Source: Methanospirillaceae archaeon (lineage in GTDB: Archaea; Halobacteriota; Methanomicrobia; Methanomicrobiales; Methanospirillaceae). Taken from it: a stretch of 64,000 nucleotides of DNA. The stretch is taken from the NCBI GenBank assembly GCA_016926505.1, contig JAFGOM010000009.1:2805-66804 (forward strand). The letters are read 5' to 3'. Below are positions 40,062 through 63,149 of this stretch, piece after piece. Made by a program: the position numbers and the translations under genes. The notes beneath the pieces are model-generated. The model did not search any database. It saw only the letters and a list, made by a program, of their open reading frames with translations, and was not told where the DNA came from. Every line of letters starts with the position of its first letter. Positions within the stretch are counted from its first letter, which is position 1.

Positions 40062-40233
40062 ACCGGATCACCCTGATAATGCATAAAAACCAGAAGAGAA
40101 CTTCCTGAAATAGGGGAAATCACCGATGAGCCACCGGATACAAAAGTACCACTGATACAGAGAGACGGGAAATTGGGAAAGAGAGGATATCTCACAGGAC
40201 CTGGCATTTTTGGTACTTCTGAACCGGACATTA

Positions 40234-42123: not shown

Positions 42124-42360
42124 TGTACCTCCTTGTCCGGATTTCACATGGGTATCATCAGAAGCATGACACCATGCCGGGCAATTATACAGATATCCTG
42201 CATAATTCCCTGAGAGAGGCATCCTCGTAAGAGGGGTGTGCACCAGCCACTTCTGCTTTGCAGTGCACTTAGATACAAATCGACAAGGATGGGTATATAT
42301 TCTTTGTATGCACAACATATATGCAGTGCAAATACAGGATACGAGGAGACCAGAGAATAC

Positions 42361-42912: not shown

Positions 42913-43002
42913 TGAGGCTATTGCATGCAATCCTGAACCGGTTTTATAGAAGAGACAGAAATTTCAGACCCTGCATGCTGACCAATCCTACGTATTTTAA
43001 TA

Positions 43003-43791
43003 ATGAAAAACGAATACTACGTTACCGTGAAAGATCCAGGAGCCAGAAGATATTATTGTATTCAGGAAAAAAGACGGATTGTGCATTCCACCCGTTTCCT
43101 TTTTTCGGCAATCCTGATCGTAATACTTTTCTTTTCTCTTCTCGCGGGTTGTATCAACCAGGAATCCTGGACAGCACAACAATGGTATGACGAAGCCGCC
43201 CTTCGTGCAGCTGCCGGCAGTTATCAACAGGCACTTGATGCCTATAACCGGTCCATCGGACTGGATCCGGCTAATGCTGCTGCATATACCCAGAGGGGAA
43301 TTGCTTTTCAGAATCTGGGCCTCACATCGGAAGCACTCCGTGATTTTGATCAGGCCATTGCATTACATCCTGATGAAACTGCTGCATGGCAGGGAAAAAG
43401 CCTGATTTATATCGAACAGGAAAAATATTCCCTCGCACGGATAGCTGCACAACAGGTGATTCGAATCGGAACAGGCCCGGTCCAGAATGCCTGGTACTTA
43501 AAAGGGATCGCCGATGCAAAGAACGGAGACCTGGAAGAGGGACTCAGAAGTTTAAATGAAGCAATCCAGATAGAACCTGCAAGGGAAGATTTCTGGAAGT
43601 ACAAGGCTTTTATTCTGAACCAGCTTGGAAGAAACAGCGAAGTTCTCCTCTGTTATGAGAAATTGACCGAAATAAACCCAGGGAATCCGGAGTACTGGAA
43701 TATGAAAGGCCAGATGCACGTAAACCTCGGGGAGATAAACCAGGCGACCGAGGCTTTTTCCATGGCAAAGAAACTGGTTGAGACGGCGTAA
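43003..43791 (+). CDS. Tetratricopeptide-repeat protein (lipobox-like N-terminus)
   Basis: Repeated 'A..Y..AI.L.P....AW..KG' units. 'LLAGC' follows a hydrophobic segment. Confidence 0.8.
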   Translation: MKNEYYVTVKDPGARRYYCIQEKRRIVHSTRFLFSAILIVILFFSLLAGCINQESWTAQQWYDEAALRAAAGSYQQALDAYNRSIGLDPANAAAYTQRGIAFQNLGLTSEALRDFDQAIALHPDETAAWQGKSLIYIEQEKYSLARIAAQQVIRIGTGPVQNAWYLKGIADAKNGDLEEGLRSLNEAIQIEPAREDFWKYKAFILNQLGRNSEVLLCYEKLTEINPGNPEYWNMKGQMHVNLGEINQATEAFSMAKKLVETA

Positions 43792-44191
43792 TTAGTTACT
43801 GCGGGGACGAACTTTCAGATTTCAGTGATTCTTCCAAAAACTTTTTCTTTCCCTTAATCATCCCTATCTATTGATATAATCATCATATCCCCTTTTATTA
43901 ATAAGGAATATTAAGGTATAGTTATTATCGGGACCAGAAAAGGGAATAACCAACCATCTCCTTTCATCCTATCTCATATTCCCTTTATCATCGAATAAAC
44001 TACATGAAATTGTGTCTTTTTCACGGATAAATGGAATATGTCATTTTTTTTGAAATATTCATCCCTTACTACTTAAAGTAAGTAAACACGTGGAAACGAA
44101 AAATAATTAAGAATTATTTCGATATCTTTAATGGTTTTTTATTACTATACTAAAGTATTACCAGATACTTATGCAATCTGCCGTTTGAAAT

Positions 44192-44971
44192 ATGACTGTT
44201 TTATATACATCAAAAATCCTCAAAGCGTCTGCTCTTGTAGATGATACCCTTCAATTATTTTCATCCTGGGATCTCTCACGTAATCAAAAGGACAATCTCA
44301 TAAACATCAAGGAAAACAATATACTGGCTAAAACCTCCAGATCTCGACTTGAGGACATTCTTGTCATCCTTAAACAGCGCTATCTCTCTGATGACGATCT
44401 CATCACCGCACTCCACCTTTTTGTCAGTCAGCGAGTTTCAAATGAAATATTATATCCAATTCTCTTTTTCCTGACAGTACGATCTGATCTCCTTATTCAT
44501 GATCTCATAATCGATTATGTTTACGAACGAAGACGCTCTGGTGCTGAATCGATATCATCTCCTGAAATTGATCACGTTGTTCAACGATATGTAAAGGAAG
44601 GAAAAACAATTACCTCATGGTCTCCAGAGACCACAATTCGGGTTTCTCAGCATTTTTTAGCCCTTCTGAGGGATTTTGGCATTTTTGAAGGAAAAAGCAA
44701 AAAACAATTTGCACCGTTTCTTATTCCAAATGAATCTTTCTCATTTCTTTCATTGTATCTTGAAAAAAGAGGATTTTCTGGTCAGCAATTGATCATAACT
44801 AATGAATGGAAGATTTTATTTCTGGAAAAAGATCTCGTAGAACGTTTTTATGTCGATTGTGAACAGGACGGGCTCCTGATCTATAATGCAGCCTGGCCAG
44901 TGATTCGAATAGATTATCCAGCCCAAACCTTAGCGGAGTATGCGCATGTCATCATTAACCGGACGAATTGA
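44192..44971 (+). CDS. brxA: BREX protein BrxA (DUF1819-like)
   Basis: It holds the first position of the BREX operon and has DUF1819-like size and helical character. The call rests on position plus weak recognition. Confidence 0.65.
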   Translation: MTVLYTSKILKASALVDDTLQLFSSWDLSRNQKDNLINIKENNILAKTSRSRLEDILVILKQRYLSDDDLITALHLFVSQRVSNEILYPILFFLTVRSDLLIHDLIIDYVYERRRSGAESISSPEIDHVVQRYVKEGKTITSWSPETTIRVSQHFLALLRDFGIFEGKSKKQFAPFLIPNESFSFLSLYLEKRGFSGQQLIITNEWKILFLEKDLVERFYVDCEQDGLLIYNAAWPVIRIDYPAQTLAEYAHVIINRTN

Positions 44972-45545
44972 ACAACTACGACAAGATATTATGAGCAGTC
45001 CACCCCGGATCAGTGTGTACCGGGAGATGCCGTTTGCTATCTTCAGATACAATCCGGAAGATGAATGGACGCTCCGATCAGAAACACAAAATCTCGCGAT
45101 CCAACTTCGGAATGCCGGGAAAAATGTGGTCCTATTTTCGATGGAGACGATTCTCTGGGAAATTCTTGAGAAGATAGAAGAGGAGAACCCGGGAGAAGGG
45201 AGACTCGGGGGGCTTATCGACCAGGAGAAGTTTGAGGGGTTTTCTAATATGCAAGAGCAGATGGTGACCTACCTTTCAGATGAAGAGTACTGTCCGCTTT
45301 CGTCCTACATCGAGAAGAAACTTAACGCTTTAAATCCGAAACAGGATATCGGGTTTCTGGTGCATGTCGGGGCACTGGCTCCCCACTTTTACCAGGTCTC
45401 AAAACTGCTGGATGAACTCCAGGGACGGGTTGCCGTCACGACGATTCTCTTTTATCCTGGATCGCTCGAAGAACCGCATGGACTTCGGTTTATGGATATG
45501 CATGATCGTCCTGCTACCGGGGGATACCGGGTGAAGATATACTGA
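44946..45545 (+). CDS. brxB: BREX protein BrxB (DUF1788-like)
   Basis: 'PFAIFRYNPEDEW..L......L...G..V' is the characteristic DUF1788 N-terminus. Second position in the operon. Confidence 0.7.
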   Translation: MSSLTGRIEQLRQDIMSSPPRISVYREMPFAIFRYNPEDEWTLRSETQNLAIQLRNAGKNVVLFSMETILWEILEKIEEENPGEGRLGGLIDQEKFEGFSNMQEQMVTYLSDEEYCPLSSYIEKKLNALNPKQDIGFLVHVGALAPHFYQVSKLLDELQGRVAVTTILFYPGSLEEPHGLRFMDMHDRPATGGYRVKIY

Positions 45546-45549
45546 TACT

Positions 45550-48500
45550 ATGACACTTATTCGAGATATATTAGAACGGGATCTGAATCAGAAGATCGCC
45601 GAGATTATCAAGGTGAATCAGGCTGATGAAGAGACCGTATTTGAAGAGATTACTGAATATGTGGTGACCGATAATATCAGGAAACAGTATTTGGCGGTTC
45701 TGGAAGCGATCTCAAAAGGACCGCAAACTCATCAGACTGATGAGAATATTGGTATCTGGGTGTCTGGTTTCTTTGGGTCAGGTAAATCTTCTTTTGCGAA
45801 GATTCTCGGGTATATCTTAAAAAACCCATCAATTCACGGGAGCTCTGCCAGTGCTCTCTTTAAAGATCAGATCAAGGATGTCCGGGTAAGTGAATATCTG
45901 GATTATATCAATGCAGGTATTCCGACCGATGTGATTATGTTTGATATCTCAACCGATCGGCTGGTCAGGCATGGAGGGCTTGAACCGATAGCTGAGATAA
46001 TGTATCGCAAGCTCCTTGAGTATCTCGGGTATTCTACCGATTTTGATATCGCAGAGCTGGAGATTCAGCTTGAGGAGGAAGAAACAATGGATACGTTCCT
46101 CTCGCTGTTTGCGTCGCTCTATCCTGATACCACCTGGGAGAAAGCCAGAATTGGTGCGACGAAACTCAACCGGGCGAGTGCGACCCTGTATCAGATGGAG
46201 CCGCAGACCTTCCCGACCCCTGCGACCTGGGCTGAGTCGGTGAAGACCCGTCAGGCTGAATTAACAGTGAATAAGATCGTGAGCCGGATTTTTGATCTTC
46301 CTTCCCGAAGGATGCCAGGGAAGGCAATTGTCTTTGTGATAGATGAGGTTGGTCAGTATGTTGCCCGCAGTTCTGATAAAATTGAAGATCTTCGAGCTCT
46401 CGTGGAACAGGTCGGAAAAGAAGGGAAAGCCCGGCTGAAAGAGCGAAAGATACCTGCTCCAATCTGGCTGGTTGTCACCTCGCAAGAGAAACTCAATGAG
46501 GTGATTGCTGCTATTGATAGTAAGAATGTGCAGATTGCCCGGCTGCAGGACCGGTTTGCGTACAAGGTGGATCTCTCCCCTGCTGATATCAGGGAGGTTG
46601 CAAGCCGGAGGGTGCTCTCGAAGAAGAAGGAGGCAGTTCCGGTTCTTCAGACTATGTACCAGCAGTCTGAAGGACGGCTTATTGCACAGTGTTCCCTTGA
46701 GCGGTCCGGTATTGCGACAACGATATCAGCTGATACCTTTGTTGAATCGTATCCATATCTGCCCTACATGATCGATCTCTCCATTCGGCTGATGTCTGCG
46801 ATTCGGCTGCAGTCTGGAGCGGTGAAACATCAGGGAGGAGCGAACCGGACGATCATCAAGCAGGCGTATGAGATGCTGGTCTCTGAACGGACCCGGCTTG
46901 CAGATGCTCCGGTTGGCCGGCTCGTGACCCTTGATCTTATCTATGAACTAGTAGAAGCGAACCTCTCGGTTGAAGGCCGGATGGATATGATGACGATCCT
47001 CTCATCATTTGAGGAGGAAGGAGATCCGGAGTGGCCGGTGCGGTCTGCGAAGGCGATCATGCTTTTGACTTTTGTGCGAGAGATTCCCCGGACACCGAAG
47101 AATATTGCATCGGTTCTGATATCAGAGGTCGGGCAGGATGCTCCGGTTGCCGAGGTGAAGGCTGCGGTGGACCGGTTGCTTGCCAAGCGGTTCATCAAAG
47201 AGACTGAAGAGGGGTATAAACTGCTCTCACAGGGTGAAAAGACCTGGGATGAGGAACGGCAGGGGCTGAAAGGGGTTATCAGACCGGCAGATCGTACTGG
47301 AATTTTGCGTGACCTGCTGGGGAAGAGTCTTACTGATCCGAAACTGAAGACATACCGGCATCAGAATCTGAAGAATTTCAAGGTCTCTTACTCGGTGGAT
47401 GGCACCCGGGTCTCTGATCCCGGCTCCATCGTGGTGTATATTGAGATCTCTGAGGACCCGGAGAAACTTGCGACCGAGATTGAGCGGGTTCAGAGTGAGA
47501 GCAGGGGCAAGGATCGGCAGTATGACATCTTCTGGGTGATGACCGCGACCCCGGAGATTGATGGGATGGTGACTGAGCTCTATGCCTCCCGCGAGATGGT
47601 CAGGAAGTACGACCAGGCACGGGCACAAAATAAGATTAATGCGATCGAGCAGGAGTGCCTTGAAGCTGAGAAGAAGGAGCAGGCCAGGTGGCAGGCCCGG
47701 CTTTCAGAGAAACTCTTCCAGTCGCTCAGTGAGGGGGTCGGGATTTTCCAGGGAGTTCGGAAGGAGAGTGCCTCTCTTGGGAAGGATCTCTCGTCAGCAT
47801 TCCCGGCCCTCTTTGGGTATGCTGCACCGATTCTCTTCCCTCATCTCTCAACCGGGGCGGTGAACCTGAAAGGGGATGAGGCCACCCGGGTGCTTCGCGA
47901 TCAGAACCTCTCCGGTCTGCCTGCAATCTTTTACGAGGGGAATGGCGGCCTCTCGCTTGTCAGGAAAGAGAATAATAATTACGTGGTCAATCCGGAAGCC
48001 CCGATTGTTGCCCTGGTGCTTGAGCCGGTCCGTCGTCAGCATGAGTACGGGGGTGAGGCAATCTCGGGGAAGTACCTTGAGCAGTACTTTGGCGGGTATG
48101 GCTTTGGCTGGGATAGTGCGGTGGTGATGATGACCCTTGCAACCCTCTTCCGGGGTGGGATGCTTGCGGTGATGCATCAGGGGACCACATACGAAAGTTA
48201 TGATGAGAAGGAGGCACAGGCGATCTTCACCACGATCCCGAAGTTTCGGAGTAGTGCGTTTATCCTCTCTGATACGAATATTCCGGTAGAGGCACTGGTG
48301 AGGCTCTCGGATCTCCATCGGGATATGACCGGGCATGAACTGGATATTGATGAGGTGAAGATTGCTGCCGGGTTTGTGGAACTGGCAAATAAGGAGTATG
48401 ACGGGGTGGTCTCACTCGTGGCAACCATCCGATCGAACAAGCTTCCGCAGCTTGAGGATGTCGAGAGTCTGAAAGTGATGCTCCAGGCGATTCGGTCTGC

Positions 48501-49206
48501 CCCTTCATCCCGGGCGGTCTGCAAGGTTCTGCAGGGGTATGATCAGTCACTCCGTCATGCACGGGACCGGTACCTGGTGGTATCACGAAAACTCACCGAT
48601 TCCTTCCTTTCGATTGTTGAAAAGGCTCGGAAACTTGTTCCGATTGCAGCACCGGCAGTTGATAATAGGGACGGAGAGCAGGTAGTTAAAGATTTGGCAG
48701 CCTTGCTTGAGTCTGATGACCTCATTGACCAGGAAGAAGAGTTAGTCAAACTTCTTACAGATGCTGAAGCTGCATACCTGAAAATGTATAAGGATGCTCA
48801 TGCTGAGCGGAACCATATCATCAAGAGTTATATTGAACTCGTGAATGGAAATCCGGATTTTGATGCACTTTCACCAGCACAGCAGGATATTGTGCATGGA
48901 GTTATCAGGCCCTATCTGTGTGAGGGGGAGGGGCTGAATGAGCAGTATGTCTGTCCGGTCTGTAAAGCAAATGTTCCTACGATTATTTCCCTCTCCCCTC
49001 GGGGTGTAGAACTTTTTGAGAAGATGAACCTGATGATCCAGAAATTTCTCATCCCCCCGGAGCGGATCAAGCAGGTGAATATCTCTACGTATCTTCCAAA
49101 TCGGATTGAAGATATGGAGTCCCTTGACCTTGCCGTTGCGGAACTGAAGGCTGAACTAGAGAAATTCCTTGATGAAGGATATACGCTCGTCTTTACCTCA
49201 CGATGA
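45550..49206 (+). CDS. brxC: BREX P-loop ATPase BrxC/PglY
   Basis: 1,218 aa. Walker A 'GFFGSGKSSFAKILGY', Walker B-like 'IVFVIDEVGQY'. Size and position are typical. Confidence 0.85.
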   Translation: MTLIRDILERDLNQKIAEIIKVNQADEETVFEEITEYVVTDNIRKQYLAVLEAISKGPQTHQTDENIGIWVSGFFGSGKSSFAKILGYILKNPSIHGSSASALFKDQIKDVRVSEYLDYINAGIPTDVIMFDISTDRLVRHGGLEPIAEIMYRKLLEYLGYSTDFDIAELEIQLEEEETMDTFLSLFASLYPDTTWEKARIGATKLNRASATLYQMEPQTFPTPATWAESVKTRQAELTVNKIVSRIFDLPSRRMPGKAIVFVIDEVGQYVARSSDKIEDLRALVEQVGKEGKARLKERKIPAPIWLVVTSQEKLNEVIAAIDSKNVQIARLQDRFAYKVDLSPADIREVASRRVLSKKKEAVPVLQTMYQQSEGRLIAQCSLERSGIATTISADTFVESYPYLPYMIDLSIRLMSAIRLQSGAVKHQGGANRTIIKQAYEMLVSERTRLADAPVGRLVTLDLIYELVEANLSVEGRMDMMTILSSFEEEGDPEWPVRSAKAIMLLTFVREIPRTPKNIASVLISEVGQDAPVAEVKAAVDRLLAKRFIKETEEGYKLLSQGEKTWDEERQGLKGVIRPADRTGILRDLLGKSLTDPKLKTYRHQNLKNFKVSYSVDGTRVSDPGSIVVYIEISEDPEKLATEIERVQSESRGKDRQYDIFWVMTATPEIDGMVTELYASREMVRKYDQARAQNKINAIEQECLEAEKKEQARWQARLSEKLFQSLSEGVGIFQGVRKESASLGKDLSSAFPALFGYAAPILFPHLSTGAVNLKGDEATRVLRDQNLSGLPAIFYEGNGGLSLVRKENNNYVVNPEAPIVALVLEPVRRQHEYGGEAISGKYLEQYFGGYGFGWDSAVVMMTLATLFRGGMLAVMHQGTTYESYDEKEAQAIFTTIPKFRSSAFILSDTNIPVEALVRLSDLHRDMTGHELDIDEVKIAAGFVELANKEYDGVVSLVATIRSNKLPQLEDVESLKVMLQAIRSAPSSRAVCKVLQGYDQSLRHARDRYLVVSRKLTDSFLSIVEKARKLVPIAAPAVDNRDGEQVVKDLAALLESDDLIDQEEELVKLLTDAEAAYLKMYKDAHAERNHIIKSYIELVNGNPDFDALSPAQQDIVHGVIRPYLCEGEGLNEQYVCPVCKANVPTIISLSPRGVELFEKMNLMIQKFLIPPERIKQVNISTYLPNRIEDMESLDLAVAELKAELEKFLDEGYTLVFTSR

Positions 49207-52200
49207 CCATGACCGATACACCGGATGTGAACAAGTCTGCACTCCATGATCTCTCCCTGACCGCCCGAAAAACCCTGACCACTGATGTCCAGGATCTTCT
49301 CGAAGGGGTGTATGGTCTCTCTGATAAAGGAGTATTTACGCCGGCAGAGAAGATCCCGGCGATCCAGGATGAACCTGAAGTTGCAGAGACCCGAAGGCTC
49401 CTTGAGCAGCTGTTTGCTGATGAGACGTCTTCAGGTATGCCTGCTCCGGAAGCATACCGGCGACTGGTAAAAGAGGTCTCGTTCACCTGGACCAACCGGC
49501 TCGTTGCTCTCCGGATGATGGAGGTCCGGGGGCTTATCAGGAAATCGCTGGAAGGGCAGGTAGATTCAAATGGGTTCCTCCGGTGGTCCGTTTCTCCGGA
49601 GCAGGCAGCGATCAAGCGAGATATGGGGGATCTCACCCTGAATAGCCGGGGAGAGACCGGGCATACCGGATTTTTATCCTCTCGGTTTGTGGTGATATCG
49701 CCGGTGAGATAGCAGTCCTCTTTGATCCAGAGAATCTTCCGTCTCGTTTATTTCCCCGGCCTCCGGCTTTGAAAGAGATGATCCTGATACTTACGCATCA
49801 GGATCTTGATTCCTCCTGGCAGGCAGAAGAGACGATCGGGTGGGTGTACCAGTACTTCAACGAGGAGGAGAAGGCTGCGGTCTTTGACCGGCTCTATAAG
49901 CAAAAAAAGAAGATCCAGGCAGAGGATATTCCGGCTGCCACCCAGCTCTTCACTCCCCGGTGGATTGTCAAATATCTGGTGCAGAATACCCTGGGGCGTC
50001 AGTGGGTACAGATGCATCCCGATACCCGGCTCGTAGAGTTTCTGGATTATCTCGTTCCCCTACAGGGAGAGGTTCCTCCGGTTCCGATGAAACCGGTCCG
50101 GGAGCTGACTCTCCTGGATCCGGCATGTGGGACGATGCATTTTGGGCTGGTGGCGTTTGATCTCTTTACCCGAATGTACGAAGAGGAACTGGAGAAGGCC
50201 GGGACTTCAGGATGGCCTGTTGCTCCTTCGATAAAGGATACCAGAGAGATTCCTTCTGCGATTATTGAGAATAATATCTGGGGGGCTGATATTGATCTTC
50301 GGGCCATCCAGCTCTCGGCATTGACGCTGTTCCTGAAAGCGAAGGCATACCATAAAGATACGAAGATCACGAAGCATCACCTGGCCCATGCCGGAGTACA
50401 GCCGATCAGCGGAGAGCATTTAGAGAAGTTTGTGCAGGATTCAGAACTGTCTCCATTATATAACCGGATTCTCCGGCAATTACTTGAAGAACTAAAACTT
50501 GCTCCGCATCTGGGGTCATTACTCAAGATCGAGGAGTCGATCACCCGGCTGGTGCAGGAGGAGAAGGACCGATTCGAGGTGAAGGGCAGGCAGATCGATC
50601 TTTCTGGGAAACCATTGGAGGGGTTTGATACAGCTGCTTTTGACGAGGTCTTCTGGGAACGGCTCGGGAATGATATCGCTAAGAAACTTCAGGAGTATGC
50701 AACGGCTCACGGGACCCTGGAAGAGAATTTTTTTGCAGGAGAGGCAGAGAAGGGGCTTCGGTTACTGGAGGTACTGAGGAGAAAGTATGATGTGGTTATT
50801 GCTAATCCTCCTTATCTCCACAATAGAGGAATGAGTATAGAAATTCGTAATTATCTTAACTCGCATTATATTAATTCCGATAAAGACCTATATAGTGCCT
50901 TCATTTATAAATTAATACAATTATCTACTCAATATTCTCGCATTGGAATGATTACTCAACAATCATTCATGTTCACTAACAATTTCGAATTATTACGCAA
51001 TTTTATTGATGAATGTGCACTTTTAGAGTCTATGATCCATTTAGGTCCACATGCATTTGTGGATATTAGTGGGGAAAAAGTCAATACAACTGCATTCATT
51101 TTAAACATTTTTGATACAAAAACTAAATATAAAAGAAATTCTTCAATTTTTTTTAGATTAATTAAAATTCAAGACCCAATTGAGAAAAAAATTAATTTTG
51201 GAAAGTTTTTTTATGATTTAAAATCCAATCACGAAAATAAGTGTTATCTCTATAGTACGATTAATTTTAATAGAATTCCTGAATCTCCTTGGATTTATTG
51301 GTTAAGTTCAGAAATATTATCTTTTTTTGATAATTATAAATTATTATCAGAAATCTCTCCCTCTCGAGTTGGGTTGCAAACAGGAGATAATTTCAGATTT
51401 TTAAAATATTGGTGGGAAATAGAAAATAGAACTACAGTCCTAAAATGGACACCATATATGAAAGGAGGAGAGTATTGTAAGTGGTACGGAAACCAAGAAT
51501 ATATTGTTAATTGGGATAATGATGGTTATGAAATTAAAAATATTGTGGATTCAAAAGGAAAAATTGCATCTAGGCCACAAAATACTGGTTATTATAAGTT
51601 AAAGGGGATAACATATGGAGATTTATCATCAACAGCATTTAATGCTAGGTTATCTCCAGGTGGATTCATTTTCGATGTAAAAGGTTCTTCCCTGTTTCCA
51701 GATAATAATTATAAATTCTTAGGATTATTAAATTCAAAGTTTTCAAATTATATTCTGTCTTCGTTGAATCCCACAGTTTCTTTCCAAGTCGGAGATCTCG
51801 CCCGTCTCCCCATCCCCGATAAAAATTCACCCCTTCTCGAATCACTCGTCGAAAACGCCATCACCCTCGCTAAGATTGACTCAGCCGAAGACGAGATCAC
51901 CTACGACTTCACGGCTCCCCCATTCGCCCCCACCCTCTCCGGCATGACCGATCTCGTGAAACAACGTCATGACCATCTCCGGGACATAGAAAATAAGATC
52001 GACGACGAAGTATATCGTCTCTACGACATCACTGACGAGGATCGGGCAGCCATCGAAACCGAAGTCGGACAGCCTCCGGCACTCCCGACCCCGACACCCG
52101 TGGATCTGGTTAATCACTGGATCGGGTATGCCATCGGGATCATCATGGGCCGGTTCATCCCCGGAGAAGAGGGAGCACTCGGGTCCGGAATCGTGGATGG

Positions 52201-52990
52201 CAAGCACATCTTCTCCCCGGAAACAGAGAAACAACTCCGGGAGCTGACCGATGCCGATGCGGTGACAGTCCTGGAAGACGGGCATCCCGATGACCTGGGA
52301 GTTAAGGTGCTCACTGCCCTGACCCTGATGCTCGGAGAGGAGACGACCACCGAGATTCTGTCGCTTTTGGGCGGGGATATGGCAATAGGAGCAGCGACGA
52401 TCCGATCATTTCTGCTGAAAGATTATTGGAAGATTCATCTCCAGTGGTATCGGAAGCGACCTATCTACTGGCTTATCCAGTCACCAAAGAAAGAATACAG
52501 CTGTTATGTCTTCCATGAGCGGATGACGTCTGATTCGCTCTTTTTGATTCAGTCGGCCCGGTATCTGGGTGGACGGATCAATGCTCTCCGGAGCAGGATC
52601 GGCGAGGTCATGGAGGCTATTCAGACTGCTGAAGGCCGGGAGCGGAAGGCTCTTGAGAAGGAGCGGGAACAGCTCGAGAAGGCCCTTGTAGATTGCGAAG
52701 AACTGGATAGTTCTCTCACCCGGATCATTCAGAAGACGGATGAGACCGGGAAGACGGTTGGATGGAAACCCGAACTCGATGACGGGGTGATCCTGAATAT
52801 GGCACCGCTCCGGGAGCTCTTCCCGTCGTGGAAAGTTGAACCGGTGAAATTCTGGAAAGAACTGGAAGAGGGGAAATACGATTGGTCATATACTGCAATG
52901 CGATACTGGCCGACGCGGGTTAGGGAGGCATGTAAGCGGAATAAGAGCTACGCGATTGCACATGGGTTGGAAGAGGAGTATGAGGGATGA
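49203..52990 (+). pseudogene. pglX: BREX N6-adenine DNA methyltransferase PglX, split by a 1-nt frameshift at about 49646-49660
   Basis: The N-terminal 169-aa ORF (49203..49712) and the 49769..52990 ORF are both PglX-like. The downstream frame is open from 49646 and reads 'AYRIFILSVCGDIAGEIAVLFDPENLPSRLFPRP...WVYQYFNEEEK...TPRWIV...ANPPY'. Confidence 0.8.
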
Positions 52991-53754
52991 AAAAATTAAT
53001 TCTATCAATTCTGACTACTCCAGGAACACTCCCTATTATGACAGGTATTATTGGATTTTTTAGTGGATATTTGCTTAATCGGCATTTTGACAGGCAGAAA
53101 GCTCTCCGAGATAAAGCCAGACAACTCGATTCTGTTTTATACTCTGATATGAGACCTGAAATTCTTGAAGTGATCAAATCTCTCGAAAAAGGCACATACA
53201 TTAAAGTAAAGGGGGAAGGAATTGATGAAATATCTATTACTGATAAAAAAATACGTGAGATGTTATTAGGTTCTAAAGTCTTTATCGAAAAATCAGGTAA
53301 ATTGGAGCTCATCTATACTCAAGATAAGGTGTTTACCAAACCCGCGAATGAAATTATCTCTTTGGTTGAACAGTTTACAAAAGAACTGAACGATTTCCTC
53401 ACATCTCTAAAGGCTATTGATACGGCCATCATTCCATCTTCTTTTGAATCGGATATTTTTCGAACCTTCAAAGTGGAACGAGAATCGGCAAAAATGAAAG
53501 AATTTTCAATGAATCTCATTTATTGTGCAATATTAGATTCTCAAAATGCATTTACAGGCGGAAGAACCTGGGTAGATGAAATGGTTCAAAATAAATTTCC
53601 TGTTCTCCAATTGTTTGTTTTTCAATATGACTCACTCAAAAGGAAATCTGAAGAACTAGCAGAAAAAAGAAATGAATTAATTGAGATATTATCAAAAATA
53701 GAAAAACAAATCTCTAAACTTCATAATCGGTTTCTGAATGAGAGATTGGTATAA
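52987..53754 (+). CDS. Hypothetical protein with an N-terminal TM helix and a C-terminal coiled coil (nested cassette gene 1)
   Basis: ATGA overlap with the pglX stop. 'LILSILTTPGTLPIMTGIIGFFSGYLL' TM segment. AT-rich. No family was recognised. Confidence 0.6.
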   Translation: MKKLILSILTTPGTLPIMTGIIGFFSGYLLNRHFDRQKALRDKARQLDSVLYSDMRPEILEVIKSLEKGTYIKVKGEGIDEISITDKKIREMLLGSKVFIEKSGKLELIYTQDKVFTKPANEIISLVEQFTKELNDFLTSLKAIDTAIIPSSFESDIFRTFKVERESAKMKEFSMNLIYCAILDSQNAFTGGRTWVDEMVQNKFPVLQLFVFQYDSLKRKSEELAEKRNELIEILSKIEKQISKLHNRFLNERLV

Positions 53755-53774
53755 AATATAAATAGTGGATTCGA

Positions 53775-54206
53775 ATGACAAAATATTCAAATTTAATTGA
53801 TGATTATAAATCCTCAGCCAAACGGCATCTAAATGGTTCGGACACACTCTTGAGAGAAAACCAGTATGAAGAATCGGCATATCTCGCAGGGTATGTATCT
53901 GAGTGCTCAATAAAGAAGATGGTTCAACTGATCTTAAAAAATGATGCTCCAATATTTCAGCATGATATTTCATTATTATCTAATCAGTTAATACAATTAA
54001 TTCAAAAGACGGCTGAATTTTCATTATCTAAATATATACCAACCCCGCAAGGAAATTTGTTCGAAGGTTCAATTAATAATTGGGATCCTGTTCTTCGGTA
54101 CAAAACTGACGGGACTATAAATGAAACAACAGCAAAAGAATGGTATCGTGAAGCTTCAGTTCACTACAATATTCTGCAGGAGATGTGGAAGGATGGATAC
54201 TCATGA
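53775..54206 (+). CDS. HEPN-like small protein with an Rx4H motif (nested cassette gene 2)
   Basis: 'AKRHL..LL....YEESAYLAGYVSECSIKK', 'HDISLL', 'WDPVLRY' and 'YREASVH' (R125..H130) match the HEPN layout. Confidence 0.55.
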   Translation: MTKYSNLIDDYKSSAKRHLNGSDTLLRENQYEESAYLAGYVSECSIKKMVQLILKNDAPIFQHDISLLSNQLIQLIQKTAEFSLSKYIPTPQGNLFEGSINNWDPVLRYKTDGTINETTAKEWYREASVHYNILQEMWKDGYS

Positions 54207-55513
54207 ATATTCACCTTGATGAAGCCCGGAATAATACTCTTACCTTTCTAAGGTCACTTCTGAAAAAGAACACGGATATTGAAAAGATTATCTTTATTGA
54301 AGATGTATTCAGCCGATTCAGAATAATATACTGGACCCAGAAGCCATATGACTTCGACAAGATAAGTGCGACTATCGAAAAAACGGCAAGACCATTCTGG
54401 TCTCAGGAATATATCAATATTTCAGTCACATCTCCAGCCTACGATCGTGAATTCTATGATCAGAGCTGGGACGAAGGAAAAGAAGATGACGAAATGGATT
54501 CTCTTCGGATACTTGAGCGGCATCGCAACCGCCGTGGATGGTTTGAACCATTCACAAAACCCCTTTGGCTCCCATTAGATCCTGGTAACCCGCGGACTCC
54601 CCCAATCATCACCTTCTACTCATTCAAAGGAGGAATTGGGAGAACCACCGGACTTGCAGCTTTCGCAATAGATCGGGCACATGCAGGAGAGAGGGTAGTA
54701 GTCCTTGATTGCGATCTGGATGCTCCAGGTATTGACCGACTTATCACCGGAGATCCTACTATCCAGGCTCCATGGGGGATTGTTGATTATCTCCTCGAAG
54801 CCCCGTTGATTGAATTACCCCTTACTGATTACAAACACCGTTGTCAGTCAGAAAAAATTACCGGGGAAGGAGAAATACTGGTTTTTCCAGCCGGCAAACT
54901 TGATGACAGATATCCGGAAAAATTAGCCCGGATCGATCTCAATCAGTCTACGGATGATTCCGATCATCCTCTGATGAGACTAATCTCCAGAATCGCAGCC
55001 GAATTAATTCCGGACTGGATTCTGATTGACGCACGAAGTGGCTTGTCTGAAATATCCGGGTTAGTTCTTTCCGATTTATCCCATCTCCTCGTATTATATG
55101 GCACCACTTCAGAGCAGAGTTGGGATGGTCTTCGATATATTATTGAAAGAGCAGGAAAAGAGAGAATAAACCGTGATACCCCACAACAACCCTGCATTAT
55201 TGTTCAGTCATTGATACCTGAAGTAAAATCAACCCCATCTGCCCAGGAATGGTTTGAGACGAGATCCCTCGATCTATTTTCAGAGATATACTACCGCGAA
55301 GACCCTGAGGATCCTTCAGAACGAGAAGAGAATTATTGGTATCTTACCGATATCAATGATGAAAAAGCCCCTCATCTCCCGGTAGGGATTACATATTCAC
55401 CCGGACTTGCCTTCTTTCATACCCTTTCTGATATTGTTCCTGACATTCGGAATAATAAAGACTTTCAGGCTTTGGTACAGAAGATCTATGATTATTTCAA
55501 ACCAGATGTATGA
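54203..55513 (+). CDS. ParA/MinD-like (SIMIBI) ATPase with a variant Walker A 'KGGIGRTT' and an N-terminal extension of about 135 aa (nested cassette gene 3)
   Basis: 'ITFYSFKGGIGRTTGLAAFA', 'VVVLDCDLDAPG', 'WILIDARSGLSE'. ATGA overlaps with both neighbours. The ORF is also open from 54185. Confidence 0.7.
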   Translation: MNIHLDEARNNTLTFLRSLLKKNTDIEKIIFIEDVFSRFRIIYWTQKPYDFDKISATIEKTARPFWSQEYINISVTSPAYDREFYDQSWDEGKEDDEMDSLRILERHRNRRGWFEPFTKPLWLPLDPGNPRTPPIITFYSFKGGIGRTTGLAAFAIDRAHAGERVVVLDCDLDAPGIDRLITGDPTIQAPWGIVDYLLEAPLIELPLTDYKHRCQSEKITGEGEILVFPAGKLDDRYPEKLARIDLNQSTDDSDHPLMRLISRIAAELIPDWILIDARSGLSEISGLVLSDLSHLLVLYGTTSEQSWDGLRYIIERAGKERINRDTPQQPCIIVQSLIPEVKSTPSAQEWFETRSLDLFSEIYYREDPEDPSEREENYWYLTDINDEKAPHLPVGITYSPGLAFFHTLSDIVPDIRNNKDFQALVQKIYDYFKPDV

Positions 55514-57006
55514 CATTAACACAGGAACAGCAAAGATCTCTCATCCATGACGTATCATCCCTGGATAGCCACGGGCACGGAGATATGGAAGATAAAGAGA
55601 ATTTCCTCAGATATTTTTATCCGGTTCCTGCTCATATCCGTGGCTTTGATCCTGAAGTCGTCATTATCCTTGGAAAGCGAGGGGTTGGGAAATCTGCATT
55701 ATATGAAGCGGTAACAACCCATAGGTTAATTTCAGTGATTTCACGTTTTTCTCCACAGCAACGAATTCAGCAAGCCTCATTATCAAAGACCTCTTGGTGC
55801 AAGGGATATAATCCACAAAAAAGGTTTCCTGACCCACAGGTAATATTTAAGATATTTGAAAAAGACTGGAATGGGCGCATTATTGAACAGATTTTCTGGC
55901 ATTGTTACCTTCTTCGTGAATTATCTGATAACTTACCAGAAGTCGATAAAAACTCTTTAGAATTGATAATATCAGGGGAAAATTATGAGCCCCTTAAAAT
56001 TATAGAAGCATTTATTGCAGCTGGGGAGTTTCCATATTACGCATTAGATCGTCTTGATCAATCACTCGAAAAAGAAGGGCGATTTATCTATATTGCATAC
56101 GATGCGTTAGATTCTTTAGGAATCGAACAATGGGAATTGCATCGCCGATTAATATCAGGTCTCATTTCATTTTGGGCAAAACAGAGCAGGAGGTGGTCCA
56201 ATATCCGTGCAAAAATCTTTATTCGGACTGATCTCTATGAACGCTATCTGCAGATCGGAGAACCAGATGTAATTAAACTCGCAGCGAATAGAGTGGAGAT
56301 AACATGGCTGCCTCATCACCTCTATGCAATGTTGATTAAACGTATTGCAAATATCAATCCATCTTCATTAGCATATTGTCAGGACGCAGGAATTCACTTT
56401 AAAAAAGATAATGTCCTTGGTCATATCCCCCAAATCTCTTCACTAGATGATGCCGATTTGTTTATTACAAGGTTTATCGGGCAATATATGGGTTCTGATA
56501 ATAGAAAGGGAAAGACGAATACTTGGATACTAAATCATCTACAGGATGGCAAAAAAAATGCCAATCCACGACCTTTAATAAGATTGATCGGTAAAAGTGC
56601 GACTGCTCAAAAAGATAGTACCTTACCATCTCCTCCCCATCTTATTTCGCCGGTAACAATCCGAAGAGAATTAGACCAAATATCTGTCGAAGAGATCATG
56701 AGCGCTCAGAGTGAGTGGCCATGGATTAATGACCTTAAACAGAAACTTGAAGGAAAACAGATCCCTATGGAGGAAAAAGATCTGGAACAGATTATTACGA
56801 AATTATTTAGAACTGAATGGAAAGAGGGATCGAAAAACAGGCCACCTTCTGATAATCCATCTGCATTCATTGAGTATCTCGATAAACTTGGATTAATTAA
56901 GGAGAGGCCTGACAAGAGAATAGATGTTACTGATTTATATCGTGCGGGACTTGGCTTAAAACGAAAAGGCGGAGTTAGAAAAAACTCCCCTTCAAAGAAG
57001 AAATAA
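55510..57006 (+). CDS. P-loop NTPase of unknown family (nested cassette gene 4)
   Basis: Walker A 'ILGKRGVGKSALYEAV', Walker B 'FIYIAYDALD', then 'KIFIRTDLY'. Basic C-terminal tail. Confidence 0.7.
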   Translation: MTLTQEQQRSLIHDVSSLDSHGHGDMEDKENFLRYFYPVPAHIRGFDPEVVIILGKRGVGKSALYEAVTTHRLISVISRFSPQQRIQQASLSKTSWCKGYNPQKRFPDPQVIFKIFEKDWNGRIIEQIFWHCYLLRELSDNLPEVDKNSLELIISGENYEPLKIIEAFIAAGEFPYYALDRLDQSLEKEGRFIYIAYDALDSLGIEQWELHRRLISGLISFWAKQSRRWSNIRAKIFIRTDLYERYLQIGEPDVIKLAANRVEITWLPHHLYAMLIKRIANINPSSLAYCQDAGIHFKKDNVLGHIPQISSLDDADLFITRFIGQYMGSDNRKGKTNTWILNHLQDGKKNANPRPLIRLIGKSATAQKDSTLPSPPHLISPVTIRRELDQISVEEIMSAQSEWPWINDLKQKLEGKQIPMEEKDLEQIITKLFRTEWKEGSKNRPPSDNPSAFIEYLDKLGLIKERPDKRIDVTDLYRAGLGLKRKGGVRKNSPSKKK

Positions 57007-57039
57007 TCCGATTTTCCTCTCAAATATCATCCAAAAGAT

Positions 57040-58137
57040 ATGGAATCCCCTAGAATCCCCTCTGATTATCCCACCTTCCTCACCGACCTGAAGAACCGTA
57101 TCCGCCAGGCCCAACTCAAAGCCACAATATCAGTAAACCGGGAACTCATTCTCCTCTACTGGCAGATCGGCAAAGATATTCTCACCAATCAGGAGATACT
57201 CGGCTGGGGAGCAAAGGTCATCGACCAACTTTCCCAGGATCTCCGCACAGAGTTCCCTGATATGAAAGGTTTCTCGGTCAGAAACCTCAAGTATATGCAG
57301 GCTTTTGCTGCCACTTATCCAGACCCTGAATTTGTGCAGCAGGTTGCTGCACAATTGCCCTGGTTCCATATCTGTCTCCTCATAACCAGAATAAAAAACC
57401 CTAATGAACGGTTGTTTTACCTGAATCAGGCCATCGAACATGGGTGGAGCAGGAGCATTCTTACTCATCAGATTGATCTCAACCTCTATGATCGTCAGGG
57501 GAAAGCCATCACAAATTTCTCCCATACGCTCCGTTCCCCAGCATCAGATCTGGCTCGAGAGACTCTGAAAGATCCCTATATCTTCGATTTCCTGACGCTC
57601 TCTGAAGAAGCACAGGAAAGGGACCTTGAAGATGCCCTCATCTCTCATATTCAGCAATTCCTGCTCGAACTCGGCATCGGATTTGCGTTTCTTGGAAGAC
57701 AATATCCCCTAACCGTTGGAGATCAAGATTTTTATCTCGACCTCCTCTTCTATCATACCCGTCTCCACTGCTACGTGGTCATTGAACTCAAGGCTCATGA
57801 ATTCAAACCGGAATGTGCAGGAAAATTAAATTTCTACCTCTCTGCAGTGGATGATCTCATAAGGCAGGAAGGAGACAACCCTACCATCGGGATTCTCCTG
57901 TGTCGTGAGAAGAACCGGGCGATTGCAGAATATGCCCTGCGGGATATCCAGAAACCCATCGGAGTATCAGAGTATCAATTGACCAGGGCATTGTCTGAAG
58001 ACCTGAAAGAACGACTTCCGAGTGTTGAAGAAATTGAAAAGACATTGGAAGAGATTGAACTGAAGACAATGTCATCAATGTCTGGAGAAATTGAGATTAA
58101 CTATAAGGATGGGACAAAATATCATGAAAAATTCTAA
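57040..58137 (+). CDS. DUF1016/YhcG-family PD-(D/E)xK nuclease
   Basis: N-terminal 'I..AQ.KA..SVNRELILLYWQIGKDIL' and 'FSVRNLKYMQAF'. C-terminal nuclease core 'DLLFYHTRLHCYVVIELK'. Confidence 0.8.
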   Translation: MESPRIPSDYPTFLTDLKNRIRQAQLKATISVNRELILLYWQIGKDILTNQEILGWGAKVIDQLSQDLRTEFPDMKGFSVRNLKYMQAFAATYPDPEFVQQVAAQLPWFHICLLITRIKNPNERLFYLNQAIEHGWSRSILTHQIDLNLYDRQGKAITNFSHTLRSPASDLARETLKDPYIFDFLTLSEEAQERDLEDALISHIQQFLLELGIGFAFLGRQYPLTVGDQDFYLDLLFYHTRLHCYVVIELKAHEFKPECAGKLNFYLSAVDDLIRQEGDNPTIGILLCREKNRAIAEYALRDIQKPIGVSEYQLTRALSEDLKERLPSVEEIEKTLEEIELKTMSSMSGEIEINYKDGTKYHEKF

Positions 58138-58168
58138 CACAGTTGCACGTAACCTTCGGTGACCCACT

Positions 58169-60751
58169 ATGCCAACCGCAACAGAATACCTTAAAACCCA
58201 GATAACCTCAAGCCTCAAGAACCATCACCTGGTTGTCCTCTTTGATCCCGAGAAACACTACTCAGATATTATCAAAAACCTGGACCTGAACGGGATACCC
58301 ATTCATACCTATACCGGTTCATTCATCGAACTCCGGAAAGAGATAGCCGGACTCATGACAGGGGAGAAACCACCCGATCTCCTCCTCTACATTCCGATGG
58401 CTGAAAAGGATTCCAACAATGCACTCATCGGCTTCACCAAACCGGGTGTCACCCTCCAGCCCGGTCAGCACCCCTGGGAACGAAACACCCGGCTATCGGT
58501 TATTGCTCGACAGGTTCTGAAGAACCATCTGTCAGAACAGGAGATGAGTGATATTGAAGCAAAGATCGAGGCAGGAAAGCTGACGCTCTCTGACATCGAT
58601 ATCATGGCTGAATCAGTCCGGCCCCCTCTCCCTGAAGCTCTCTCCCTCGTATTTCGCACGAAGTCACCACAGGAAACCCTCCTCTCATTCATCACTGATG
58701 AGAGCCGGGATAACGATCTCATAACAAAGGGACTCATCCCTGACCTGATATCAGTAATTCAGACCACAACCGGATATACTCCGGGAGATGATCAACCAGA
58801 GACCATCAGACCAAATCTCATCAAATATCTCCTGTTCTCTGCGTTCATCAGTGAGATTGGAGAAACTCCGTCAGAACTCGTAAAGGTTCCTCATACAGAA
58901 GGTAAAGAACTCCAGGATATCTGCAGGGATATCATCTACTCCTGGCAGAGCCGACGGAAAACCGCAGCTCTCTATGAGCAATACGCACGAAATATCGAGA
59001 ATACCCTCCATCTCTCAAACCTGACCATTTCATCTGAACAACTCACCGTGAGCCGTGTATTCCCCGGAACCGAAAAGAAACTCATCGCTCTTGCAGAAGA
59101 GGCATGTTTGTCAGGAACCATTGCTGACCTCGATATTAAAACCCTGGCAAGCGATCGCCTTCACCTATACTGGTCACAGCAGGATCCGGTCATCAGTTTC
59201 AGATGGAAGATTCTGGAAGAGATCAGCCAGTTTACCTCCCTCTCAAAAGAGATCGAGACAAAAATCAGAGAAAAAGTATGGCAGGCTCAGGATCTCATCT
59301 CTGCCTATATCAACCCGCAGCAGGGATGGTATCACCTTGACACCCTCCATCGAACCATACTCAAACACCAGTATGATGACACCCTGGACTCCGGGTGGCA
59401 GGATGACTTCCTGGATCGCATCATCGGAAAAGTGCAGAAGCAGTACTCGACCACTGCCGACCTGATGACCAATGCCCTCACGCTTGCAATCGCCCAGGAA
59501 GGAACCCGGCAGATAACCAGTCCGATGCAGACCAGAACCTTCTCCTCATATGTGAGGCAGGATGAAAACCCTGGAAAGACTGCATATATCCTCGTCGATG
59601 CATTCCGATACGAGATGGGAGTTGCTCTTCAGGAGGTACTCAGTGGCACACATGAACTCTACGCAACCATTGGAACCCTCCCCTCGTACACTCCGGTGGG
59701 AATGGCCGCCCTCATGCCAAACGCGGAAAAAGAGTTTGCCATTATCGCATCACCACAAGGAGGGCTGACTTCGCTCGTTCATGGTACGCCGCTGACTACC
59801 CGGGAAGAACGGATTACGTACCTCAGAGACCAGGTAACCAGTGACCTCCTCGCTTGCAAACTCTCTGATCTCTTCCCCAGGCCGAAGAAAAAGATAGAAG
59901 ACCAGATCAGGAGTAGTCCATTCATCCTCATCACCTCCCTGGAGATCGATGCAGCAGGGGAACAATTAGAACCGCATCTCGCCAGGCAGAGTATGGATGA
60001 GATCATCCGCTATCTGAAACGGGTCATCTCACACCTCACCCGCCTCGGTGTTACCCGGATTGTGATCACTGCCGATCATGGGTACCTCTTTGGGGAGGAA
60101 CTCACCGAGGCAATGAAGATAGATCCCCCAAGCGGTCAGACTATCGCAATACATCGCCGGTTCTGGGCAGGAACCGGAGGAGACGCTCGCGACTCCTATG
60201 TTCGGATACGACCTGAAATGGTAGGAGTGAAGAGCGATCTCGAGTTTGCCTACCCTGCAGGTATCGGGGCATTCAAAGCAAAAGGAGGAGGAACCGCCTA
60301 TCACCATGGGGGAATATCTCTTCAGGAACTAATCATTCCTGTTCTCGTTATCGAACATACCGGCCAGGTCCTTTCATCAGATTCAAGTATCTCCTGGTCA
60401 CTTGCAATCAGCGGAGACAAAATATCCAGTCGGATGGTTTCAGTAAAGATCAACGGGACGATCACGAGTATCACCTGCGACCAGGTCCCGAAAGTCAGAG
60501 TAGAGATCCGGTCAGGAGATCTGACAATATCAAACCCGCTGACCGCTCATTATGACTACCGGGAAGCAACAGGTGACATAAGCATGAGGATAAACCATGA
60601 CCCGGCGAAAAACCGAAGTCTTGAGGAGAACACCGCAATAATGCAGGTACATACCATCCCGAAAGGTCAGGCAACCATCCATCTTCTTGACAGCGAGACC
60701 GACGTAGAGCTCACAAAAATAGGTCCATTCCCCGTAGACATCAGCTTTTAG
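58169..60751 (+). CDS. pglZ: BREX alkaline-phosphatase-superfamily protein PglZ
   Basis: 860 aa. 'AYILVDAFRYEMG', 'ITADHGYLF', 'YHHGGISLQELIIPV'. Confidence 0.85.
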   Translation: MPTATEYLKTQITSSLKNHHLVVLFDPEKHYSDIIKNLDLNGIPIHTYTGSFIELRKEIAGLMTGEKPPDLLLYIPMAEKDSNNALIGFTKPGVTLQPGQHPWERNTRLSVIARQVLKNHLSEQEMSDIEAKIEAGKLTLSDIDIMAESVRPPLPEALSLVFRTKSPQETLLSFITDESRDNDLITKGLIPDLISVIQTTTGYTPGDDQPETIRPNLIKYLLFSAFISEIGETPSELVKVPHTEGKELQDICRDIIYSWQSRRKTAALYEQYARNIENTLHLSNLTISSEQLTVSRVFPGTEKKLIALAEEACLSGTIADLDIKTLASDRLHLYWSQQDPVISFRWKILEEISQFTSLSKEIETKIREKVWQAQDLISAYINPQQGWYHLDTLHRTILKHQYDDTLDSGWQDDFLDRIIGKVQKQYSTTADLMTNALTLAIAQEGTRQITSPMQTRTFSSYVRQDENPGKTAYILVDAFRYEMGVALQEVLSGTHELYATIGTLPSYTPVGMAALMPNAEKEFAIIASPQGGLTSLVHGTPLTTREERITYLRDQVTSDLLACKLSDLFPRPKKKIEDQIRSSPFILITSLEIDAAGEQLEPHLARQSMDEIIRYLKRVISHLTRLGVTRIVITADHGYLFGEELTEAMKIDPPSGQTIAIHRRFWAGTGGDARDSYVRIRPEMVGVKSDLEFAYPAGIGAFKAKGGGTAYHHGGISLQELIIPVLVIEHTGQVLSSDSSISWSLAISGDKISSRMVSVKINGTITSITCDQVPKVRVEIRSGDLTISNPLTAHYDYREATGDISMRINHDPAKNRSLEENTAIMQVHTIPKGQATIHLLDSETDVELTKIGPFPVDISF

Positions 60752-60759
60752 GTGAACTC

Positions 60760-62802: not shown

Positions 62803-62897
62803 ATGGGGATGAATTCACACAGTGGGCTCACTACTCAATATAAAAGTACATATTACCTGCTGACATCAGATACCCTTTTGTCATGAAAAAACTGTTC

Positions 62898-62904
62898 TTT
62901 TTTT
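62898..62904 (+). terminator. Oligo-T tract downstream of brxL
   Basis: A T7 run about 95 nt after the brxL stop. Confidence 0.25.
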
Positions 62905-63149
62905 GTTAGTCAACCCGGATGATTATATCATCACGATTTTAAAGAAGGATAGCATCCTTTCTGGTTATTCGGGGAACAAACGGTTAATTCTTCCCTTCAC
63001 ATGATACTCAATGGGTAGATTTACCATAAAATATCCCACTAAACAAATTTCGTATCTGACCTAAAGAAAGAAGTGATGAACCTGCCATTATGAATACCGG
63101 TAAGAAGAATCAATGGATTCGATTCTTTGAAGAAAAAAAGATGGATCTC

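Follow-up and report, generated by a model that had tools for sequence, protein, structure and literature searches.

In type 1 BREX systems, methylation of a non-palindromic 6-bp motif is carried out by the methyltransferase PglX (BrxX), which defence also requires. In the BREX system of E. coli, deletion of brxX/pglX abolishes both methylation and defence with the cells remaining viable (PMC6326788), and pglX is the usual target of inactivating mutations in unbalanced BREX or Pgl systems (PMC4365076; PMC6326788). Frequent pglX disruptions have been reported before (PMC9122589; PMC11341690), and Goldfarb et al. (2015), as that study is cited in PMC9122589 and PMC11341690, described BREX type 1 loci whose pglX allele is disrupted or irregular. 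pglX is also the BREX gene known to phase-vary. In Streptomyces coelicolor Pgl (BREX type 2) a G8 tract in pglX changes to G7 or G9 at 10^-2 to 10^-4 (PMC4365076), and in the BREX-1 systems of Lacticaseibacillus rhamnosus and Brevibacterium casei pglX varies by programmed inversion of the shufflon type (PMC9881135). The N-terminal domain of Salmonella PglX is a helical bundle spanning residues 1-227 (PMC11341690), while in E. coli BrxX the N-terminal and methyltransferase domains together form the upper jaw of the protein (bioRxiv 10.1101/2024.04.12.589305), the N-terminal domain being conserved around the SAM pocket (PMC11341690; bioRxiv 10.1101/2024.04.12.589305).

The locus described here lies in a 64,000-nucleotide stretch of a Methanospirillaceae contig (the window). 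As in the disrupted type 1 alleles reported before, the methyltransferase gene is interrupted and the other BREX genes are intact, an arrangement consistent with a loss of PglX that is tolerated with methylation and defence switched off (PMC6326788). It differs from them in that the molecular event is identified, an apparently recent loss of 10 bp between short direct repeats within the N-terminal domain, and in that the host is a methanogenic archaeon.

The BREX Operon and Its Cargo

The genes follow the type 1 order brxA-brxB-brxC-pglX-cargo-pglZ-brxL, with all five partners of pglX on the same strand. The initial annotation described these partners as intact, and each is full length when set against profiles and orthologues. 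brxA (44192-44971, +; 259 aa) matches Pfam BrxA at 7.8e-23 and PADLOC BrxA with residues 5-254 against profile positions 7-259 of 262. brxB (44940-45545, +), which has 201 aa as the longest ORF and is called as 184 aa in the Logan contig described below, matches Pfam BrxB and, with residues 4-201, positions 2-203 of the 203 in the PADLOC model. brxC (45550-49206, +; 1218 aa) matches PADLOC BrxC at 2.9e-197, with residues 4-1212 against positions 6-1176 of 1180, and its orthologues in two close relatives (L113 and L114) have 1217 aa. The start of pglX overlaps the brxC stop (ATGA). Beyond the cargo, pglZ (58169-60751, +; 860 aa; PADLOC PglZ 7.2e-91) encodes a product with 90% or more identity to the PglZ (861 aa) of an uncultured Methanospirillum genome, while brxL (60760-62802, +; 680 aa) matches PADLOC BrxL at 3.8e-284, with residues 6-679 against positions 5-679 of 680, and has orthologues of 680 aa in the relatives.

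The gap between pglX and pglZ is a variable defence-gene slot inside BREX, its cargo differing between relatives. In the window (52987-58137) it holds a 255-aa ORF of unknown function, the three genes of the PADLOC candidate defence system PDC-M28 A/B/C (53775-57006, +), which encode a 143-aa protein, a 442-aa KGGVGR-type AAA ATPase and a 498-aa Sll1717-family P-loop ATPase, and a DUF1016/YhcG PD-(D/E)xK nuclease gene (PADLOC PDC-S02; 57040-58137, +). The corresponding gap in L113 (5870-9969) carries a 237-aa ORF, a 752-aa TPR protein and DUF1016, and that in L114 (5930-7126) a single 398-aa PIN-domain protein. Just upstream of the BREX genes (38169-42318, -) lies a pair of neighbouring acetate--CoA ligase paralogues (630 and 694 aa), together with a gene for an MFS lactate/formate-type transporter. 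Within the window, the BREX locus has no flanking integrase, transposase or tRNA gene.

A pglX Gene in Two Reading Frames

In place of one uninterrupted ORF of ~1,200-1,270 codons, pglX in the window consists of a 169-codon ORF and a 1114-codon frame. Translation of the first runs from ATG 49203 to TAG 49710-49712 (+). The second frame (+), shifted by -1, is open from 49646, immediately after a TAG at 49643-49645, until the stop at 52988-52990 and reads PGRDRAYRIFILSVCGDIAGEIAVLFDPENLPSRLFPRP, so that the two frames overlap by 64 nt. Both match consecutive parts of a single PglX profile: the 5′ piece matches positions 3-105 of NCBIfam BREX_1_MTaseX (NF033452) and the 3′ frame positions 154-1209, the latter at 798 bits against a cut-off of 500, with the PADLOC PglX models giving the same picture for both pieces. 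The split and the positions given for it in the initial annotation are therefore correct, as is its placing of the first possible downstream starts at TTG 49769 and ATG 49778. The 3′ frame also matches Pfam Eco57I and N6_Mtase, and its translation contains motif I (DPACG-type, xGxG; LLDPACGTMHFG) and motif IV (VIANPPY) of a gamma-class N6-adenine methyltransferase, both invariant or almost so among aligned homologues. The curated-model score, the methyltransferase motifs and the gene context place the gene in the BREX-1 PglX family and, being split in two ORFs, it is a disrupted member of that family.

The 5′ fragment (49203-49712, +) comprises 153 native codons (M1 to ...NSRGETG), 90-92% identical in amino acid sequence to the N-terminus of PglX from L113, followed by 16 out-of-frame codons (HTGFLSSRFVVISPVR) and the TAG. 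The 3′ reading frame (49646-52990, +), in which the native reading resumes at GAC 49655 (the D of RDRAYR), holds the remainder of the N-terminal domain, the methyltransferase domain (DPACG, NPPY), the target-recognition domain and the C-terminal domain. This domain order is that of the solved PglX/BrxX structures (Salmonella 8C45; E. coli 9EWZ and 8ZEK), in which the residues around the join align to approximately residues 140-155 of the N-terminal domain, although the sequence match to these structures (E ~ 1e-40) is confined to residues 84-382 and the target-recognition module of the window is a different, low-G+C allele. TTG 49769 and ATG 49778 (49769-49780, +), the earliest canonical starts of the 3′ frame, lie 57-66 nt past the TAG of the upstream ORF, correspond to internal codons (ALKEM) of intact homologues and have no GGAGG or GGTGA motif upstream. 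In the NCBI record of the source contig (92.7 kb) the two pieces are entered as separate proteins of 167 and 1106 aa, the length of the second implying a start at ATT 49670.

Comparison With Intact Relatives

The residues A-Y-R, read in the second frame from GCA at 49661, are invariant across the alignment with 17 homologues that are 48-56% identical, and the join of the two frames must therefore lie within 49646-49661. When every possible join was scored against a profile built from 120 PglX homologues, the score formed a plateau of 479.4-479.5 bits at 49646-49655 and fell steadily further downstream. Both results agree with the interval of about 49646-49660 that had been proposed from the reading frames. 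The distant homologues could not by themselves locate the lesion, since the profile scores for a 1-nt loss in the G4 run (479.4 bits) and for a 10-nt loss (478.8 bits) were too near to separate until close relatives were compared. Scans of genome contigs and metagenome contigs and a first protein search yielded no close intact relative, the best proteins being ~52% identical; three relatives with an intact pglX (L112, L113 and L114) were reached by cluster look-up. An apparent breakpoint near residue 136-151 common to three other loci (L092, L096 and L099) was attributed to contig ends or a possible chimera rather than to a recombination hotspot.

L112 is a JGI metagenome contig with 86% nucleotide identity to the window over 49622-52990 and an uninterrupted PglX of at least 1125 aa, L113, a 3.92-Mb genome that carries the label uncultured Methanospirillum sp., encodes a PglX of 1274 aa, and the JGI contig L114 encodes one of 1269 aa. 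Across the lesion site they read NSRGETGRDRAYR or NASGETGRDRVYR, all three following the pattern ...N-S/A-R/S-G-E-T-G-R-D-R-A/V-Y-R..., and in the DNA alignment all three have 10 nt more than the window. The window reads GGGGAGA, ten gap positions and then GACCGGGCATACC, where L112 reads GGGGAGAGACAGGCCGGGACCGGGCGTACC (split as GGGGAGA-GACAGGCCGG-GACCGGGCG), L113 GGGGAGAAACGGGACGGGACCGGGCATACC (split as GGGGAGA-AACGGGACGG-GACCGGGCA) and L114 ..CGGGGAGACGGGGCGGGACCGGGTATACC (also given as CGGGGAGACGGGGCGGGACCGGGTA). This 10-nt gap is the sole indel in the 3379-nt alignment of the window with L112. Its junction falls at 49654-49658 (+), the gap being placeable anywhere from 49654/55 to 49657/58 because of a GAC microhomology. 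Of the initial annotation's account, the split thus stands and its molecular detail, a single-nucleotide frameshift in a CCGGGG/CCGGG run, does not. The loss produces a net -1 frame shift at codons 153/154, inside the N-terminal domain, putting the remaining 1,111 pglX codons in the -1 frame and ending translation from the native start after 169 residues.

The 17 distant homologues are, like the three relatives, continuous through the site, and since the distant homologues share the loop length of the intact relatives (consensus GEGPRDxAYR) the longer state is ancestral and the deletion in the window derived. An ancestral GEGPRD encoded with GAGAG repeats, considered before the relatives were available for comparison, proved wrong in detail, the relatives reading GETGRD. 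The frameshift is not the gain or loss of one repeat unit; ten nucleotides were deleted between two imperfect copies of a GAC(N)GG repeat. Such repeats flanking a deleted stretch would be the signature of slippage during replication or of a microhomology-mediated deletion between direct repeats 10 nt apart, and the event would be placed in the stretch GAG-ACN-GGN-CGG-GAC-CGG. The microhomology may have been 3 to 6 nt long depending on the ancestral codons, as judged from relatives that are 74-86% identical.

Selection and Age of the Allele

Branch-specific codon changes were counted with L113 as outgroup. The window branch, with the split pglX, carries 89 synonymous and 15 non-synonymous changes (ratio 0.17), and the L112 branch, with an intact pglX, 108 and 27 (ratio 0.25). 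The downstream ORF has been under purifying selection for essentially the whole of the window branch, and its 1114 codons contain no further stops or indels. It follows from the substitution pattern and the lack of any other lesion that either the deletion is recent or the downstream ORF is still in use. The deletion appears to be evolutionarily recent, with the selection signal fitting a still expressed and useful ORF equally well. The initial annotation had taken the intact neighbouring genes as an argument against long-term decay; this argument stands, and the substitution pattern adds to it.

Decay of the whole locus in the lineage had been considered on account of remnant loci on other Methanospirillum contigs and was weakened when the remnants in L005, L012 and L085-L087 were found to resemble a second pglX remnant of L113, which lies downstream of its intact BREX system.

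Probable Loss of Function and Alternative Explanations

The best reading of the allele is that a recent 10-bp deletion has probably caused a loss of function of pglX, silencing an otherwise intact archaeal BREX-1 system. Full-length PglX would not be made and, as PglX is needed in BREX-1 for methylation and for defence, BREX would be off with the cell unharmed. Inactivation of the methyltransferase was one of the possibilities raised in the initial annotation and is the best supported of them. It is unlikely that the split gene still functions through re-initiation of the downstream ORF at TTG 49769, ATG 49778 or ATT 49670, in which case the product might be a PglX lacking ~155-195 N-terminal residues, either partnering the 153-residue N-terminal fragment or acting as a deregulated methyltransferase. 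The purifying selection on an ORF free of other lesions, the start codons placed merely 57-66 nt past the TAG and the two proteins of the NCBI record would all suit such a product, and a cis-inhibitory role for the N- and C-terminal domains is put forward as speculation in the BrxX structure paper (bioRxiv 10.1101/2024.04.12.589305). Against this, the candidate starts are internal in every intact homologue and lack a recognisable ribosome-binding motif, the conserved N-terminal domain packs with the methyltransferase domain, a single ORF is kept in all three relatives, and a recent deletion explains the selection signal equally. There would be only a slim chance that the deletion leaves pglX alive in the fuller sense of a split or N-truncated PglX, made from about 49769/49778 and held under selection, that uncouples methylation from defence in this archaeon; were this so, the methyltransferase would be freed of the proposed N-terminal cis-inhibition, or a two-piece PglX would reassemble with the 153-residue fragment.

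That the organism really has an intact pglX, with the split arising from assembly or sequencing or from a minority variant fixed in the consensus, is quite improbable. Only two sources carry the exact allele, an NCBI contig of 92.7 kb and a single Logan sample, which may share reads, and the site is locally G+C-rich and repetitive (CCGGGG..CCGGG). However, a clean 10-nt loss is atypical of a homopolymer or polishing error, and there is no further indel relative to L112. Over 46203-52712, lesion included, a Logan assembly of SRR13394437 does not differ from the window by a single base, so that two different assemblies agree over 6.5 kb, and the 32.7-kb Logan contig crosses the site without a break. 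A homopolymer miscount, the error at a G/C run that had been suggested, is therefore unlikely. Reversible switching of BREX between ON and OFF by phase variation, whether by slippage in the short G runs or the short junction repeats or by compensating indels, is very unlikely too. It would suit a gene known to phase-vary in a locus whose remaining BREX genes are intact, and a +1 or -2 change anywhere in 49646-49661 would give back a PglX shorter by three residues, in a loop of variable length among homologues. In S. coelicolor, where a pglX frameshift would likewise turn the system off, the tract is G8; the join in the window has nothing longer than a G4 (49648-49651) and a G3 (49659-49661), TRF found no repeat at the lesion site, and the 10-nt deletion removed the second repeat copy, leaving no tandem repeat and nothing to suggest reversibility. 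The two assemblies show a single allele, with no variation observed. Since the missing 10 nt would not be regained by simple slippage, a knock-out is favoured over a reversible switch, and the deletion is best regarded as an effectively one-way mutation and not a programmed or rapidly reversible one; the phase-variable G-tract switch of the initial annotation is not supported. Programmed -1 ribosomal frameshifting, which would join the two frames in translation, can practically be dismissed. The needed shift is indeed -1 and the frames overlap by 64 nt, but no X XXY YYZ heptamer occurs in any frame of 49620-49712, the RNA fold of 49640-49770 lacks significance (z = -1.17, with 26 of 200 shuffles giving a fold as good or better), and the arrangement is not conserved, a single ORF being present in all relatives and distant homologues. 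A shufflon-type programmed inversion was considered on the model of L. rhamnosus and B. casei (PMC9881135), with which the window shares a split or altered pglX ORF and a DUF1016 gene close by, and was rejected. The split lies in the N-terminal domain rather than at the edge of the target-recognition region, inverted repeats in 43000-63000 (16-25 nt) are at chance level only, the same interval contains no partial pglX copies or recombinase genes, and no recombinase domain was found among the cargo ORFs.

The Target-Recognition Module and Other pglX Loci

From just past NPPY to the end of the target-recognition region (50600-51850) the G+C content of pglX falls to 25-36%, against 50-58% in the rest of the gene, a dip common to L112 and L113. 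In this segment the window protein is 84-100% identical to that of L112 and 24-42% identical to that of L113, with 85-100% identity to L113 in the flanks. The segment looks like a low-G+C specificity (target-recognition) cassette that has been exchanged among Methanospirillum BREX loci. A scheme in which a swap of target recognition led to autoimmunity and so to selected loss of pglX was rejected, because the intact L112 shares the module (84-100% aa identity) and the swap therefore predates the deletion. Longer homopolymers occur elsewhere in pglX, namely A7 at 49902-49908 (in conserved YKQKKKIQ codons), G6 at 50280-50285 and T8 at 51147-51154 (in the low-G+C module); slippage is more likely at these than at the G4 and G3 runs of the lesion, yet all are in frame.

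Decayed pglX remnants ~80-85% identical to the window are present on other Methanospirillum contigs (L012, 1490-4114; L085-L087, 4001-6625; L005, 2164-5120; L113, 19095-20608). In these, codons 15-126 from the N-terminus of pglX run directly into the C-terminal third, the equivalent of window 49569-51850 being absent. Those in L005, L012 and L085-L087 have extra stops, a broken yhcG after them and no brxABC upstream, and they are not evidence for decay of the window's own BREX locus.

Among the top PglX homologues (P0001-P0120; Chloroflexota, Methanothrix and others) many have merely ~670-700 aa, stopping right past the methyltransferase domain on contigs that extend well beyond, and at some loci (e.g. 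L014 and L017) the full protein is matched over 4.2-4.8 kb. A split or interruption of PglX at the methyltransferase/target-recognition boundary may be common in Chloroflexota, Methanothrix and others, for which the pglX of Brevibacterium casei (PMC9881135) is the described comparison. In the pglX of a Methanotrichaceae MAG (L015, 7440-11290) the query is matched in alternating frames (3, 2, 1, 2) and the called protein (P0061) has an out-of-frame tail, from which several frameshifts follow; these could be real decay or long-read homopolymer errors.

Implications

For annotation, the locus should be recorded as a BREX system with a disrupted pglX, predicted to be inactive, and should be entered neither as phase-variable nor as a pair of distinct genes. 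Disruption of pglX is an established and frequent occurrence and the window allele is another instance, adding one more well-resolved example, from an archaeal methanogen, to the known pattern in which pglX is the BREX component most often lost or altered. Given access to the organism or sample, the allele would offer a simple natural test of the need of archaeal BREX-1 for full-length PglX.
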